Source: a virus
IMG/VR virus record: IMGVR_UViG_3300011494_000001
Coordinates: 1-46,011 of that record
Length of the DNA stretch: 46,011 bases
Direction: 5' to 3' (one strand)
This document shows positions 22,872 through 26,654 of the stretch, piece by piece; the stretch's first letter is position 1, and the number at the start of each line of letters is the position of its first letter. The notes under the pieces are model-generated. The model saw only the letters and a program-made list of their open reading frames with translations. It did not search any database and was not told where the DNA came from. The position numbers were made by a program, and so were the translations under genes.

Positions 22872-23654
22872 TCAGCCTAGTGCGCCGCCGCGCCATATGA
22901 CGCGACCCATGATAGGCACCTCGGCCATTGATGCGGCAGAGACTTCCTCGTCTGGATAGCGGGCCTTGTCCGGGTTGTCGCTGCGAATCAGCCAGTTGCC
23001 TGATATCTGCTGCGCCATGCGCTTGATGCTTAAGCTGCCGTCTGGCCGGCGGATTGCGTACACCTGGCGGTCTCGCGGCTCCGTGTCGGAGCTGTCGAAC
23101 AGCACCACGTCACCCTCGAAGATGTAGGGCTCCATGCTGCTTCCGCTGGCGTAGATGACAAACAGGTGCTGCGGCTTTGCGCCCATGCGGCGTAGCCAGT
23201 CGCGCTTGAAGGCAAGGCCTCCATTCACTTCGACGTGCTCGTTGAGCGCGCCGTCACCGCAGGCGCCGCGGGCGCTGTATTGGGGGATGAGGGCGTAATC
23301 GTCGCTGCTTGGAGAGTGCCCGGCGCGACTGTCTTCCGCCGGCGTGGCTGTGAGGCCAATCGCTGCTTCGCCAAGATTGCCGATCTGCAGGTCGCCGTCT
23401 GTTCCTGGCGAGCGATGAGCCTCGTCAGCAATTAGCACAGTTCCTTCCGCAAGCCCCCAGTGGCTGGCAGGAACGACATCGGAGAAGAAGGTGATCATCT
23501 GGATGATCTTCGTCTTGTCGATACGGCCGGTCGCGATCCACCCCTGAACCGATGGCGGCTTCACGTTGAAATGGTCCGCAAGGGCCTTCTTTGAAAGACC
23601 CTTCTTGATTCGTGCGGCGTCTATAGCTGCGCCAAGCTGTTCACCTTTAAGCAT
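22872..23654 (-). CDS. cI: CI-type prophage repressor (HTH_XRE N-terminal domain + S24 LexA-like autopeptidase C-terminal domain), 260 aa
   Basis: ...[26 protein letters not shown]... (HTH). ...[19 protein letters not shown]... and ...LSIKRM... (S24 Ser/Lys dyad). Divergent from the cro-like gene. Confidence 0.9.
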
Positions 23655-23724
23655 TGCCTAATTTACCCCCGGTGAATATCGGTTAGGCAATGGCTTGCTT
23701 CTCGATTAGCTAATGCCTTATTCT
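23653..23724. promoter_or_regulatory. OR operator cluster and candidate PR promoter
   Basis: ATTGCCTAA (23653-61, overlapping the cI ATG) / TTAGGCAAT (23683-91) inverted repeat. Block TTAGGCAATGGCTT (13/14 match to OL). Block ATTAGCTAATGCCT (23705-18, 14/14 match to OL, contains palindrome ATTAGCTAAT). PR = TTGCTT(23695)-18-TATTCT(23719). Confidence 0.5.
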
Positions 23725-23753
23725 GTGCCCGTGTCACTACGGAGTAGCACTCA

Positions 23754-23975
23754 ATGACCCCCGCACAAGCAGCCCAGAAGGCGGCGCAAATCCTCGGTAG
23801 CCAGGCGGAGCTTGCTCGCCAGCTCCAGATTCGCACACCGACTGTTAGCCAGTGGTGCTCAGGTTGCCGGCCGATCCCGGCTGCTCGTGCACTGCAGATC
23901 GAATCAGCAACTGGCGGAAAGGTCCGCCGGCAAGAGCTGTGCCCGTCCTTCCCGTGGGAAGGCGTGGCCGCCTGA
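23754..23975 (+). CDS. cro: Cro / YdaS-type HTH regulator, 73 aa
   Basis: ACGGAG SD. ...LGSQAELARQLQIRTPTVSQW... HTH. Divergent from cI across the operators. Confidence 0.7.
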   Translation: MTPAQAAQKAAQILGSQAELARQLQIRTPTVSQWCSGCRPIPAARALQIESATGGKVRRQELCPSFPWEGVAA

Positions 23976-23996
23976 GAACTGAAAAGGAAGTCGACC

Positions 23997-24191
23997 ATGT
24001 ACCACGACCCCAAACATCTGCGTGACCACATCACGAAAGTCCGCCTCGACGAGGACACCGACGAGCTTCTTCAGTCGTTGGCGAAATTCCATCGCACCCA
24101 GAAAGCCGTCCTGGCTCGCGAACTGTTGGAAGCCAGCCTGCGGGACATGCTTTCGCGCCTTGAGGATAGCGAGATTGTGAAGACGGCCTGA
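23997..24191 (+). CDS. Ribbon-helix-helix-like small protein, 64 aa (cII-position)
   Basis: AAGGAAG SD. ITKVRLDEDTDELLQSLAKFH...KAVLARELLEASL fits a strand-helix-helix pattern. Confidence 0.5.
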   Translation: MYHDPKHLRDHITKVRLDEDTDELLQSLAKFHRTQKAVLARELLEASLRDMLSRLEDSEIVKTA

Positions 24192-24209
24192 AGGGTCCGA
24201 GGAGGCCCT

Positions 24210-24419
24210 ATGGCTGATCAAGAGGTCGCTCTCGATGAGCGCTACCAGCGCGCATTGCATGAGCTAGCAAGGCAGGAAGGCAAGTCTCCAGAAGACCTTG
24301 GCGGCGAGCTGATCAGGGATCAACTGCGGAAGATCACTGAGCCGAAAGGCAATACCGGAAAGGTGCAGCCGTTTCGGAGGAGGGCAGGCCCTGAAAAGGG
24401 ACCGAAAAACGGGCAATAA
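24210..24419 (+). CDS. Ribbon-helix-helix-like small protein with basic tail, 69 aa
   Basis: GAGGAGG SD. EVALDERYQRALHELARQEGKSPEDLGGELIRDQL fits a strand-helix-helix pattern. Confidence 0.5.
   Translation: MADQEVALDERYQRALHELARQEGKSPEDLGGELIRDQLRKITEPKGNTGKVQPFRRRAGPEKGPKNGQ
24389..24400 (+). promoter_or_regulatory. Possible nutR-type boxB-like hairpin (CCCUGAAAAGGG) just upstream of the tR1-like terminator
   Basis: Differs from lambda boxB GCCCUGAAAAAGGGC by a shorter stem and loop. Shares CCUGAAAAG with the PL-leader hairpin. No adjacent boxA found. Confidence 0.3.
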
Positions 24420-24421
24420 AA

Positions 24422-24448
24422 AACCCGGTGGGAAAGACCGGGTTCTTC
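24422..24448 (+). terminator. Rho-independent terminator (tR1 position)
   Basis: AACCCGGT-gggaaag-ACCGGGTT followed by CTTC, preceded by an A-run. Begins 3 nt after the stop codon. Confidence 0.6.
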
Positions 24449-24479
24449 AACAGCAGTTAGTGCAGAGAGGATTTTACAT

Positions 24480-25139
24480 ATGAGAAGTGGATATGTCTAC
24501 GGAGTGCTCTTTTCGGACGGCCTTGTAAAGGTTGGGCGGATGTCGGAGAGGTCAAGTCGCCTATCGAGCTATGGAGTGGCAGCGTCTTTGCGCGGTTCAT
24601 CTGTGTCCAGGACGGTCACGTCTGGATTCGTTGTTGATTCGGTGCGCGAGGAGAACAAGCTAATTCAATGGTGCCGACAGCATGGCAATCAAGCGGCTGG
24701 CAGGGAGTGGTTTGACGGTATCAGTTTCGATCTGCTTGAGGCGTTCATTCTGACTGATGTAAAGCCTTCCTCTGATTCCGAAATAAAGCGCGCAGCCGAT
24801 GAAGCGGCTAAGCACGCTGAGCGAGTTGCTGATGCGCTTTTCCCGTCCGGCCAAGCATCAGGACGTGACGATTCAGCGGAATGGGCGGCTGCTCTGGTGC
24901 ACGCAAAGACGCTTGAGCAAATGTTCGTGAATGAATGCTACGGCGGTGACCTGTTCGTCTGTCTACCCGAGCGCGGCTACAGCCTTTTCTTCCTAAATGC
25001 AGCGATTGCCTTTTCTCAGCTAAGCCCGATGGGCGCTGCCGAGCTCTACGCGTCTGCGCTTGAGGATCCGGAAGGGTGCATTGGCACGGTTGAAAACCTT
25101 GCAGCTGAGGCTGTGGCGGCTATTAGGGAGGCCGCATGA
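24480..25139 (+). CDS. T5orf172 / GIY-YIG-like N-terminal domain protein with unknown C-terminal domain, 219 aa (moron)
   Basis: GYVYGVLFSDGLVKVGRMS...R...EENKLIQWCRQHG...GREWFDG fits the T5orf172 pattern (recollection). Lower GC. Sits between a terminator and the replication genes. Confidence 0.55.
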   Translation: MRSGYVYGVLFSDGLVKVGRMSERSSRLSSYGVAASLRGSSVSRTVTSGFVVDSVREENKLIQWCRQHGNQAAGREWFDGISFDLLEAFILTDVKPSSDSEIKRAADEAAKHAERVADALFPSGQASGRDDSAEWAAALVHAKTLEQMFVNECYGGDLFVCLPERGYSLFFLNAAIAFSQLSPMGAAELYASALEDPEGCIGTVENLAAEAVAAIREAA

Positions 25140-25855
25140 TGGCCAGATCGCGCAATATCAAGCCAGGTTTCTTCCAGAACGAAGACCTGCAGGAACTCGA
25201 CTTCGCCACTCGCCTGTTCTTCATCGGCCTCTGGACCGAAGCCGACAAGGAAGGCCGCCTCGAAGACCGTCCGAAGAAGCTGAAGAACGCACTCTTTCCG
25301 GCTGACGACGTGGACGTCGAGCAGATGCTGGACGGCCTGGCCGCATACGGCTTTATCAGCCGCTATGAGCGCGCCGGCAAGAAGATCATCCAGATCGTCA
25401 AGTGGGCCAAGCACCAGAACCCGCACCGCCGCGAAGCGCCGAGCACTCTGCCTGCAGAGAACGATGAAGTCGTGGAGGAAGGGCAGCAGGCCGAATCAGG
25501 GCCTCAAAAGGCTGACACCGAGGCTGCCTTCGAAACCTTCTGGAAGCTGTACCCACGCAAGACCGCCAAGGACAACGCGCGCAAGGCCTTCGTGAAGATA
25601 AATCCCGATGCTGAGCTGCTGGCTCAGATCCTCGAGTCTCTGGCCAAGCACTGCACCTGCCAGGGCTGGCTGAAGGACGACGGCCAGTTCATCCCGCACG
25701 CCGCCACCTGGCTCAACGGGAAGCGCTGGAACGACGAAGTGAAGCCGGCTGGGAACGTGCACCACTTCCCCGGCGCTTCGCGTCACAGCGGGTTCGAGAA
25801 GCGGGATTACGAAGCGGACCTGATTCCGCGGGAGGATGGCACCAATGGCTTCTAA
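25136..25855 (+). CDS. Replication initiator / replisome organizer (lambda O position), 239 aa
   Basis: N-terminal ...SRNIKPGFFQNEDLQELDFATRLFFIGLWTEADKEGRLEDRP... is typical of phage replication proteins. ATGA coupling. Followed by a DnaC-like loader. Confidence 0.7.
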   Translation: MMARSRNIKPGFFQNEDLQELDFATRLFFIGLWTEADKEGRLEDRPKKLKNALFPADDVDVEQMLDGLAAYGFISRYERAGKKIIQIVKWAKHQNPHRREAPSTLPAENDEVVEEGQQAESGPQKADTEAAFETFWKLYPRKTAKDNARKAFVKINPDAELLAQILESLAKHCTCQGWLKDDGQFIPHAATWLNGKRWNDEVKPAGNVHHFPGASRHSGFEKRDYEADLIPREDGTNGF

Positions 25856-26654
25856 CGCATTGAACCTTACCGTCGCTCCGCTGGAAGCCAAGTTCGGCAT
25901 CGTCTCCAAAGAGCTGGCCGTTTGCGCTGAGCACGGTGAATACGCCGCGATCATCAGCAAGCACCGGGAGGGCCCGAGCGGCTGCCCTGCGTGCGCCGAC
26001 GCCCTGCAGCGCAAACAGGACGAAGAGCGCATCGCTGCGGAGCGGGTAAAGAACGCTGCCGACCGTCTGGCCAACAAGCTCGGCGCCGCGCTGATCCCGG
26101 CCCGATTCCGTGACCGCACGTTTGAGGGCTACATCGCCACCGAGCCGAAGCAGGTCAAGGCGCTGAGTATCTGCCGAGGCTACGCCGAGAACTTCGCCGA
26201 GCACTTCGAGGCGGGCCGCTGCCTTCTGCTGCTGGGCAATGTCGGCACGGGAAAGACGCACCTTGCCACTGCCATCGCCAACCACATCATGCGCACGACG
26301 ACCGCCACGGCCGTCTACCGCACCGTTGGCGGCATCCTGCAGCACATCAAGGGCAGCTACGACCGCGATAGCGAGTACAGCGAGGCTGACGCCTTCGCCG
26401 CGTATACGAAGCCGAGCCTGCTGATCATCGACGAAGTTGGCGCGACCAAGCCGACCGAGTTCGAGCTTGCCACCCTGTTCAACATCATCAACGGCCGGTA
26501 CGAGGAGCGGTTGCCGACCGTCGTGATATCCAACCTGCCAGCCGGCGAACTGTCCGGCGCCCTGGGCGAGCGCTGCGTTGACCGTCTGCGCGAAGGCGGC
26601 GGTATCGCTGTCGGCTTCGACTGGAAGTCTGCGCGCGGGAGAGCCAAGGCATGA
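25845..26654 (+). CDS. DnaC/IstB-like AAA+ helicase loader, ~269 aa
   Basis: Walker A LLLLGNVGTGKTHLA and Walker B LLIIDEVG. GGAGG 9 nt before ATG 25845 (the track start 25836 directly abuts the SD). Confidence 0.85.
   Translation: MASNALNLTVAPLEAKFGIVSKELAVCAEHGEYAAIISKHREGPSGCPACADALQRKQDEERIAAERVKNAADRLANKLGAALIPARFRDRTFEGYIATEPKQVKALSICRGYAENFAEHFEAGRCLLLLGNVGTGKTHLATAIANHIMRTTTATAVYRTVGGILQHIKGSYDRDSEYSEADAFAAYTKPSLLIIDEVGATKPTEFELATLFNIINGRYEERLPTVVISNLPAGELSGALGERCVDRLREGGGIAVGFDWKSARGRAKA

Follow-up and report, generated by a model that had tools for sequence, protein, structure and literature searches.

What is the 219-aa open reading frame that lies directly upstream of the replication genes of this virus, and what might it do for the phage that carries it? 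We addressed this question by computational analysis of the window (IMG/VR record IMGVR_UViG_3300011494_000001, the whole stretch of 46,011 nucleotides). The genome is that of a temperate Pseudomonas-type phage, and the ORF (24480-25139, + strand) is a real gene of its early-right operon. As one allele of an exchangeable slot with precise boundaries, it encodes, in order, a T5orf172 domain, a helical linker, and an acidic C-terminal domain.

Genomic Context and Transcription Signals

The gene is tightly connected to the replication module on its 3' side. Its stop codon, TGA (25137-25139), and the start codon of a 239-aa replication initiator (25136-25855, + strand), ATG (25136-25138), overlap as ATGA, so that the coupling to a replication gene reported in the initial annotation is indeed present (25136-25139). 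The initiator matches phrog_16167 at 6e-50, and a DnaC/IstB-like loader gene follows 3' of it. On the 5' side, a Shine-Dalgarno-like GAGAGGA (24465-24471, + strand) read from the sequence is located 8 nt from the ATG of the 219-aa ORF. Further upstream, cro (23754-23975) matches YdaS/P22_Cro at 3e-18, in agreement with the initial annotation; the ribbon–helix–helix (RHH) assignment given there to the two small ORFs between cro and the hairpin described below (orf64 and orf69) is weak (DUF6290, 0.006; Antitox_RHH, 0.16).

RNA folding indicates two hairpins in front of the gene. A boxB-like hairpin, GGCCCUGAAAAGGGACC (24387-24403, + strand), lies within the 69-aa ORF, at its 3' end, and belongs to the part of the left flank that is kept in relatives L003-L007. 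A tR1-like hairpin site (24423-24448, + strand) forms the left border of the slot; the hairpin itself spans 24423-24443 with a 7-bp stem, and its pairing is preserved in relative L007 by a compensatory stem change. The hairpin that had been read as a tR1-like terminator thus exists, and its function as a terminator is plausible at most, since its + strand tail is only TTCTTC, a weak U-tail, and the T-run lies on the - strand. Consistent with this, the hairpin was passed over on the + strand by a scan for terminators. An Rfam scan of 23600-25400 returned only a sub-threshold match to sX6.

Promoter prediction across 23500-25500 gave no + strand promoter-like site, including in the gap between the hairpin and the ATG, and the 3' side of the ORF, where the stop codon overlaps the initiator ATG, carries no terminator. 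From the missing + strand promoter and the ATGA overlap with the initiator, we infer that the gene is expressed as part of the early operon. Its base composition is distinct: the GC content of the ORF is 0.52-0.56 versus 0.60-0.65 in the surroundings, a comparison with the genome value of 0.61 puts it at 0.53-0.58, and GC3 is 0.56 versus 0.80 in the initiator, which bears out the lower GC noted initially.

These observations bear on the original description of the gene as a moron. Morons are added between genes, carry their own promoter and terminator, and are expressed from the prophage. The 219-aa gene shares their deviant base composition, but neither signal was found, and the gene is an allele of a slot that is filled in all 49 contigs surveyed below, rather than an addition to a site that is otherwise vacant. 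A true moron, that is, a prophage-expressed defense or exclusion gene protecting the lysogen, would account for the low GC and for the hairpin 5' of the gene, and nuclease-type domains are frequent in defense systems. Against this stand the absence of a predicted + strand promoter between hairpin and ATG, the absence of a 3' terminator, the overlap with the initiator, the lack of any PADLOC match, and a location within the repressed PR operon, from which expression would come only in the early lytic phase. We consider this explanation very improbable.

An Exchangeable Slot in Front of the Initiator

Blastn comparison with nine relatives (L029, L030, L032, L041, L042, L044, L048, L071, and L072) places breakpoints at 24452-24455 and 25122-25131, with constant junctions at 24455 and 25122. 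They delimit an exchangeable cassette (24456-25121, + strand) that is replaced by unrelated genes in relatives, while the flanks are ~90-93% identical. The conserved right linker defined by these breakpoints (25122-25135, + strand) holds the initiator Shine-Dalgarno sequence AGGGAGG and also encodes the final five codons of any resident cassette gene; the encoded C terminus reads ...QEAA in ANT-type alleles and ...(R/K)EAA in T5-type ones.

We surveyed the slot in 49 viral contigs having the same initiator (87-96% identical). An ORF abuts the initiator on its upstream side in 49/49, and the slot is never empty in this sample. Rha was matched in 34 contigs and ANT in 34, most of them with both; the remaining matches are to Bro-N (5), the T5orf172-tail family (4), ParB_N (2), and KilA-N (1). 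The T5orf172-tail gene is therefore absent from 45 of the 49 contigs, with another gene at the site each time, and the GC3 of the T5 alleles (0.53-0.61) lies under that of all 45 other occupants (0.64-0.79). In the more distant phage IME307 the slot is empty, and a hairpin of like layout and different sequence is found directly 5' of the initiator. Because the slot is empty in IME307 and holds unrelated genes in 45 of 49 same-initiator contigs, the 219-aa gene is accessory and outside core replication, as first proposed. It also displays the features expected of the Bro network, namely, a slot that Bro-N, KilA-N, Rha, or ANT proteins occupy in sister phages, N-domain relatives that are fused to KilA-N, Bro-N, and HTH domains, and an intragenic domain swap.

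The position of the slot differs from that originally suggested, which was the position lambda uses for cII. In Fyn8, another relative, the slot is preceded by a true cII (Pfam Phage_CII, 1.6e-10), which places it past the cII-position genes and ahead of the initiator, and a Pfam search of the 219-aa protein for Phage_CII gave no match. Nor does cassette type follow cI/cro type: the same T5 allele occurs in L003 next to a 58% cI, and L029, with a similar cI, carries an ANT allele. It is thus unlikely that the gene encodes an antirepressor dedicated to the repressor of its own phage.

The comparisons with relatives also speak to the earlier suggestion of a replication-origin-associated factor. 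A dedicated replication factor for the resident initiator or origin would agree with the translational overlap, with the constant occupation of the slot in close relatives, and with the finding that, in 15 of 17 loci, the family member is followed by an initiator within one gene. However, five unrelated cassette types accompany the same initiator (87-96% identical), members of the family are found before initiators of at least four families, IME307 has nothing in the slot, and the C-domain has no similarity to either initiator or loader. Such a role is hardly credible, and we do not retain it.

The N-Terminal Domain

The initial annotation had recognized a T5orf172 pattern in the first ~95 residues. 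Direct searches did not recover it: the 219-aa protein has no match at E ≤ 1 among Pfam, NCBIfam, and PADLOC HMMs, and the sole PHROG sign is a weak match to endonuclease phrog_1111 (E = 0.019). The assignment was instead confirmed through relatives, fold, and motif alignment. A close-family profile, which reaches relatives at 1e-11 to 1e-50, retrieves 1087 proteins at E ≤ 1e-3, most of which share just positions 3-90. The top Pfam family of these relatives is T5orf172 (best E = 7e-8), matched in 16/30 full-length relatives (E ≤ 0.1) and 31/59 N-domain-only relatives (E ≤ 0.01).

The AF2 model of the N-domain (aa 1-95; 24480-24764, + strand) shows a GIY-YIG-type beta-beta-alpha-beta-alpha fold composed of E4-11, E15-21, H27-37, E42-47, and H54-68, with pLDDT values mostly of 85-95 and of 66-73 over residues 21-40. 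Foldseek against BFVD ranks T5orf172 proteins first (E = 5e-6 to 1e-3; rmsd ~3 Å over ~95 residues). The full-length model finds nothing significant in the PDB, the best GIY-YIG match being 1zg2 (E = 1.4). Sequence profile searches of the PDB likewise returned only sub-significant matches; three of the best are GIY-YIG nucleases, and in these sub-significant alignments the N-domain lines up with the motifs of EndoII and BH0048.

Residues Y7, K17, G19, R27, E58, E76, and W77 are invariant among 30 relatives. Position 31 is Tyr in the 219-aa protein and His in the 29 other aligned relatives, a His/Tyr choice as in classical GIY-YIG enzymes. The full catalytic constellation is present: strand 1 supplies the Tyr, strand 2 the (Y/K)-x-G motif, helix 1 the Arg and the His/Tyr, and the segment past strand 3 the Glu. 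An hhalign comparison with Odn (ICP1 gp88; E = 1.9e-4, at a probability of only 47%) pairs Y7, K17, G19, R27, and E58 with identical Odn residues; E58 corresponds to E180, and the E180A change abolishes cleavage by Odn (PMC8263062). On the basis of the Pfam matches of relatives, the fold, and the motif alignment, we conclude that the first ~95 residues are a divergent T5orf172 / GIY-YIG-clan domain.

T5orf172 was originally described as a DNA-binding module, and among the rivals to an endonuclease the main one is a protein that does not cut. Here, a non-catalytic Bro-network regulator would use its T5orf172 domain just to bind DNA and, in the manner of the antirepressor-like Rha, Bro-N, and ANT proteins, tune early expression or the lysis-lysogeny switch. 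This would fit the exact slot, otherwise held by Rha/Bro-N+ANT and KilA-N proteins, and the fusion of N-domain relatives to KilA-N, Bro-N, and many HTH domains. It would also fit published descriptions of the Bro network as domain-swapping DNA-interactive proteins before the PICI replication zone and of CapR as a domesticated repressor (PMC10111431, PMC10448857). However, the invariance of E58, E76, and the whole GIY-YIG catalytic set is unexpected for mere DNA binding, and cassette type does not follow cI/cro type. A non-catalytic role is a live option given that the other occupants are regulator-like Bro-network proteins, and we regard it as possible rather than probable.

The Linker and the Acidic C-Terminal Domain

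The two domains are joined by a variable helical linker (aa 96-131; 24765-24872, + strand) in which an intragenic recombination junction is located; nucleotide homology with L005-L007 resumes at 24865-24912, inside the ORF. Linker identity is 6-19% to relatives of <50% overall identity and 72-78% to L003 and L004. Relative to the latter two, dN/dS is 0.25-0.29 for the whole ORF. By part, dN/dS is 0.15 for the N-domain, 0.7-0.86 for the linker, and 0.1-0.28 for the C-domain.

The C-domain (aa 132-219; 24873-25136, + strand) is modeled by AF2 as an acidic four-helix domain (pLDDT 93, pTM 0.84). In the family alignment, W135 is invariant and a Y-G-G-x-L-F loop is conserved. The loop may resemble a beta-clamp-binding motif, a reading that we treat as no more than a lead because the loop is part of a folded domain. 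The pI of the domain is 4.1, with a family median of 4.45, and for this reason we do not consider the tail a DNA binder. Comparison of the model with PDB folds gave no match (best E = 2.3), and searches of PDB sequences and Pfam families also gave none, revealing no Zn-finger, HTH, or NUMOD; the early impression that the C-terminal ~120 residues match nothing recognizable thus holds. A word-indexed search with the C-domain alone recovered the close family only, with no new architecture. By hhalign, the domain is unrelated to ANT (E = 0.37), comparisons with KilA-N, ParB_N-like, and unknown slot occupants were negative, and no similarity to the initiator or the DnaC-like loader was detected. 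As modeled, the C-terminal 88 residues are a novel acidic four-helix domain.

The nature of this tail also bears on whether the gene is a classical free-standing homing endonuclease, which would cut sister genomes without the gene near the slot and be copied in by repair together with flanking markers. T5orf172 genes have been proposed as homing endonuclease genes (HEGs) at genetic exchange boundaries (PMC10448857), and the 219-aa gene adjoins an essential gene, has a foreign composition, and is surrounded by sharp mosaic junctions, one of which lies inside it. Nevertheless, the protein has no recognizable DNA-binding domain and its tail is acidic, while Zn-fingers are found in 87% of surveyed T5orf172 HEGs (PMC10448857). 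Moreover, T5 is a minority allele (4/49), no T5-allele-specific nucleotide occurs in the 129 bp to the left or 213 bp to the right of the cassette, and the family divergence across 17 loci (30-50%) is about that of the neighboring genes. Homing of this kind appears unlikely.

Proposed Role of the Protein

We favor, with a probability of roughly 0.5, an accessory endonuclease that belongs to the Bro network, is expressed early, and acts in conflicts between mobile elements. The 219-aa protein would be co-produced with the replication proteins after transcription passes the hairpin. It would be a Mg-dependent DNA endonuclease, with the N-domain responsible for catalysis as well as DNA contact. 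The tail, which as an acidic domain would be unable to bind DNA, may mediate oligomerization or docking on a protein partner, and such docking would set the target. The accessory role could be to damage or process DNA, either that of the host or that of a competing phage, satellite, or plasmid; alternatively, it could be to promote recombination at the module boundary.

The occupation of the slot in 49/49 contigs hints at a common needed function, which a conflict nuclease leaves unexplained. Because the slot is filled in every contig and the occupant is always fused to the start of the initiator, the unrelated occupants could conceivably be functional analogues for one early task tied to replication onset, such as action on a DNA or host-replisome target that they have in common. 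The T5orf172 allele would perform this task by cutting, with its acidic domain, which carries the invariant Y-G-G-x-L-F loop, docking on a conserved host protein. We offer this idea as a speculative one with a small chance of being correct.

Work on T5orf172 proteins has dealt with homing-type or anti-satellite nucleases of lytic vibriophages that bear zinc-finger or RepA-like DNA binders (PMC8263062, PMC10448857). The architecture described here differs, joining a nuclease-like head to a novel acidic helical tail in temperate Pseudomonas-type phages. The natural allelic series, in which five unrelated Bro-network genes share identical junctions, provides a handle on the antirepressor-like Bro, Rha, ANT, and T5orf172 genes that precede replication modules and allows one to ask whether an intact GIY-YIG active site matters in the slot. 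The T5orf172-tail family, currently annotated as hypothetical or mislabeled 'PII-like', also gains a name and domain boundaries.

Comparison with Known Systems

A search of 50,697 records yielded a single isolate-phage homologue, gp047 of Pseudomonas phage psageB2 (QXV71624.1; hypothetical protein), which is 33% identical across 90% of the length; by megablast, the region had no match among isolate phages. The psageB2 gene occupies the same position, with cro and two small ORFs before it and an initiator and DnaC-like pair after it. At 250 aa, it carries a 24-aa N-terminal extension that is absent from the 219-aa protein. A genome-contig scan found two loci only, a Pseudomonas sp. prophage and an N-domain-only match in Streptomyces.

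Odn, an origin-directed T5orf172 nuclease (ICP1 gp88; Barth et al. 2021; PMC8263062), has in common with the 219-aa protein the second motif (IKVGR/VKVGR), the catalytic Arg, and the essential Glu, and both genes are two-domain, phage-encoded, and accessory. In Odn, the nuclease is C-terminal and a RepA_N-like DNA-binding domain targets the satellite origin (PMC8263062), whereas in the 219-aa protein the nuclease is N-terminal, the partner domain is acidic, and there is no link to any initiator. The proteins also differ in helix 1, where Tyr31 aligns with Leu in Odn; the authors report neither His nor Tyr in that Odn helix (PMC8263062).

Free-standing T5orf172 HEGs of ICP1, T5-like, and other phages (Barth, Dunham and Seed 2023; PMC10448857) share the T5orf172 domain with the 219-aa gene, and both lie beside essential genes and at exchange boundaries and have domains swapped by recombination. 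These HEGs, most of which come from lytic phages, bear zinc-finger DNA-binding repeats of the CapR, DUF723, or DUF4397 type (PMC10448857), whereas the 219-aa gene has an acidic helical tail and resides in a temperate phage, in a slot otherwise filled by Rha/Bro/ANT genes.

With the Bro network, the 219-aa gene shares the exact slot and junctions of Rha+ANT, Bro-N+ANT, and KilA-N proteins. The network was reportedly first described by Iyer, Koonin and Aravind in 2002. The Bro zone of PICIs is also located directly 5' of replication genes (PMC10111431). Unlike the other Bro-network proteins, the 219-aa protein has a C-domain unrelated to ANT or the other slot occupants and, judging from its sequence, an intact set of catalytic residues, and it may thus cut DNA rather than merely bind it.

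Genes Are Exchanged at Constant Junctions before the Replication Initiator

The genome record is complete (46,011 bp) and has direct terminal repeats. An S24-type cI repressor gene (22872-23654, minus strand) is followed by cro (23754-23975; YdaS/P22_Cro, 3e-18), two short ORFs encoding 64 and 69 aa (phrog_4113 and phrog_5333, with weak Pfam hints of the RHH type), the 219-aa ORF analyzed here (24480-25139), a replication initiator gene (25136-25855; phrog_16167, 6e-50), and a DnaC/IstB-like loader gene (25836-26654). The TGA of the 219-aa ORF and the ATG of the initiator share an ATGA overlap. GC content is 0.52-0.56 inside the gene versus 0.60-0.65 on either side, and third-position GC (GC3) is 0.56 compared with 0.80 in the initiator. 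The initial annotation had described a T5orf172-like ORF of low GC behind a hairpin and ATGA-coupled to the initiator, and this description is upheld.

The initiator is mosaic: residues 1-111 correspond to JBD44-, F10-, and LESphi2-type initiators (56-60%), and residues 109-239 are about 50% identical to MR13-, psageK9-, and phiPSA1-type proteins. Nucleotide homology breaks off in several relatives around 25130-25525 or past 25855; in one contig (L003), the loader is swapped for a 50%-identical one after 25855. A sub-threshold Rfam match to the proteobacterial sRNA sX6 (25114-25364; 22 bits, where the gathering score is 40; E 0.004) extends over the beginning of the initiator gene and is probably coding-sequence similarity, not an sRNA.

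Our main result is slot exchange at constant junctions. The initiator was used as a query against viral contigs; of the 66 loci recovered, we tabulated 51 whose match to the initiator is near full-length or N-terminal (63-97% identity). In 49 of these, the initiator is directly preceded by an ORF of 219-322 aa, with the ATGA overlap in nearly all; the other two contigs end too close upstream to judge. The T5orf172 acidic-tail family, to which the 219-aa protein belongs, fills the slot in 4/49 loci (three are L004, L005, and L006). Pfam searches of the 49 occupants returned Phage_pRha (34), ANT (34), Bro-N (5), ParB_N (2), and KilA-N (1). Compared with nine relatives, nucleotide identity of ~90-93% extends to 24452-24455 and returns at 25122-25131, which defines an exchanged segment of 24456-25121 containing the gene plus its own ribosome-binding site. 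The right linker holds the Shine-Dalgarno sequence of the initiator and the final five codons of whichever cassette gene is present, which explains the (R/K)EAA ending of T5-type alleles and the QEAA ending of ANT-type alleles. The T5 cassette is the most foreign-looking in the slot, with GC3 values (0.53-0.61) below those of all 45 other occupants (0.64-0.79, median 0.72).

Isolate phages carry further arrangements. Fyn8 has the order cII, ANT protein, initiator; the Aurca01 slot contains a Rha protein and a 77-aa ORF; and psageB2 carries a 33%-identical member of the T5orf172 acidic-tail family, the only match when three family members were searched by tblastn against 50,697 phage records. 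The presence/absence comparison bears out the earlier view of the gene as accessory, since unrelated genes replace it and the slot of IME307 is empty, with a hairpin of the same layout and the initiator ~30 nt later. That the gene encodes a core replication factor is scarcely credible, given this empty slot and the occurrence of one initiator with five cassette types.

The family also precedes at least four initiator families (phrog_16167, phrog_270/9474, phrog_1032/678, and phrog_2509). The same T5 allele is paired with differing cI repressors (that of L003 is 58% identical to the one in the window), and another contig (L029) has a similar cI yet an ANT allele. This independence of the neighbors speaks both against a factor specific to this initiator or origin and against an antirepressor devoted to the repressor of the phage itself.

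In one lineage (L017:444-1991 and L018:3902-5449), NinB, not an initiator, comes directly after the family gene, with an HNH endonuclease and NinG next. Extra DNA occurs between the 69-aa ORF and the hairpin in L044:1513-2215 (~700 bp) and between the 64- and 69-aa ORFs in L030:1428-1957 (~530 bp), indicating that the operon has further insertion points.

The N-Terminal Domain Is a T5orf172 Domain

The T5orf172/GIY-YIG assignment proposed initially was borne out through relatives and not by direct search: queried on its own, the 219-aa protein had no hit at E<=1 in Pfam, NCBIfam, or PADLOC. Only eight close homologues were found in an index of 5.8 billion proteins. A profile built from them retrieved 1087 proteins at E<=1e-3 from a representative set of 1.84 billion; about 30 are full-length two-domain proteins, and the remainder share positions 3-90 only. 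Pfam ranks T5orf172 first among these relatives, followed by MUG113 and GIY-YIG. T5orf172 is matched by 16 of the 30 full-length relatives at E<=0.1 (best E 7e-8) and by 31 of 59 N-domain-only relatives at E<=0.01.

In a confident AlphaFold model, residues 1-95 fold around a beta-beta-alpha-beta-alpha core. The predicted viral structures that match this model best belong to T5orf172 proteins (E 5e-6 to 1e-3, rmsd ~3 Å over ~95 residues). PDB searches gave nothing significant; three of the best profile matches, none significant, are the GIY-YIG nucleases T4 EndoII (0.036), BH0048 (0.2), and Hpy188I (0.37). Compared with two close alleles, the domain has a dN/dS of 0.15. JGI names two family members (P0005 and P0008) [quoted passage not shown], a name with no backing in the HMM or fold results.

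Seven residues (Y7, K17, G19, R27, E58, E76, and W77) are invariant in 30 relatives; position 31 is Tyr in the window protein and His in the 29 others. To our knowledge, Odn (gp88 of phage ICP1) is the only T5orf172 protein shown to act as a nuclease. The family profile aligns with its T5orf172 domain at E 1.9e-4, a modest hhalign score, placing Y7, K17, G19, and R27 opposite identical residues and E58 opposite E180. Replacing this residue (E180A) leaves Odn unable to cleave, both in vitro and in vivo (PMC8263062). Judged from this alignment, the catalytic set is complete, and the helix-1 His/Tyr that Odn lacks according to its authors (PMC8263062) is present in the 219-aa protein. A slot common to regulator-like genes would also suit a non-cutting regulator of the Bro network, a possible but somewhat doubtful reading, as invariant E58 and E76 are unlike plain DNA binding.

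The Linker Joins an Acidic C-Terminal Domain

Residues 96-131 form a long, little conserved helix (6-19% identity to relatives less than 50% identical overall; dN/dS 0.7-0.86). Residues 132-219, modeled alone from 16 sequences, give a four-helix domain with high confidence (pLDDT 93, pTM 0.84) with nine invariant residues (W135, A142, Y154, G156, L158, F159, G166, F170, and A187), including a Y-G-G-x-L-F loop. The initial annotation recognized nothing in this part of the protein, and our searches agree: neither the fold (best E 2.3) nor the sequence has a counterpart in the PDB, and Pfam has no match to the sequence either. Comparisons by hhalign found no link to the ANT domain, other slot occupants, or the initiator and loader. 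The domain has a pI of 4.1 (family median 4.45), compared with 8.8 for the N-terminal domain. Being acidic and without a fold or family match, it is not a DNA-binding domain of the homing-endonuclease kind. Since such a domain is absent, the T5 allele is a minority in the slot, and no diagnostic differences were found in the immediate flanks (129 bp on the left, 213 bp on the right), we consider a classical homing endonuclease unlikely.

In three contigs (L005, L006, and L007), homology to the window covers the left flank (81-93% nucleotide identity) and the part encoding the C-terminal domain (75-83% from ~24865-24912 on). Their N-terminal domains cannot be aligned as nucleotides, and protein identity there is 35-37% in L005 and L006; L007 has 43% over residues 4-178. 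More distant relatives conserve the N-terminal domain better than the C-terminal domain (34-43% versus 21-31%), so this pattern reflects a domain swap in the linker and not a general rate difference.

Transcription Signals

A conserved hairpin with a 7-bp stem in the RNA fold lies at 24423-24443 and stays paired in L007 through a compensatory stem change. The hairpin that had been annotated as a terminator is therefore real; its terminator role is plausible rather than demonstrated, as its plus-strand tail is just TTCTTC and the scan for terminators passed over it on this strand. The minus strand past the hairpin reads TTTTTTATT, so the hairpin is better suited as an intrinsic terminator in the leftward than in the rightward direction. 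The sole promoter-like site in 23500-25500 is also leftward (24499-24471, TAGACA-17-TAAAAT, 10/12), and together these elements could produce an OOP-like antisense RNA of ~50 nt that spans the leader of the cassette. Because this site lies inside the variable cassette, other alleles have no conserved copy. A boxB-like hairpin with a GAAAA-type loop (24387-24403, GGCCCUGAAAAGGGACC), conserved in L003-L007, lies within the final codons of the 69-aa ORF, immediately ahead of the terminator-like hairpin, and suggests a nutR-like site; no N-like protein was identified here.

The 219-aa gene has no predicted promoter of its own. The initial classification as a moron does not hold, since neither a promoter nor a terminator of its own is predicted for the gene, and with PADLOC finding no match, a defense moron expressed from the prophage is quite improbable.

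Proposed Function and Comparison with Known Systems

We favor, at a probability of roughly 0.5 for the whole reading, an accessory DNA-cutting protein with a docking or oligomerizing tail. The protein would be made alongside the replication proteins, after read-through of the 24423-24443 hairpin. Its T5orf172 domain would cut or nick DNA, and the acidic tail may oligomerize the protein or dock it on a protein partner. Its role would be accessory: it may take part in conflicts with the host or with other mobile elements, or promote recombination at the module boundary.

Judged by its position and shuffling, the gene belongs to the Bro network, characterized in the literature as a dynamic zone just upstream of the replication zone of PICIs (PMC10111431). 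In ICP1 (L094:7828-9415), odn adjoins gp89, a Bro-N/ANT "anti-repressor", and Bro-N or Rha-like gene pairs are described in an eLife paper as co-varying with the Odn locus; the ICP1 locus is a further example of T5orf172 genes neighboring Bro/Rha/ANT genes. Odn (PMC8263062) and the T5orf172 homing-type genes (PMC10448857) are the nearest characterized relatives. They have the nuclease domain in common with the 219-aa gene but differ from it in partner domain, domain order, and phage lifestyle.
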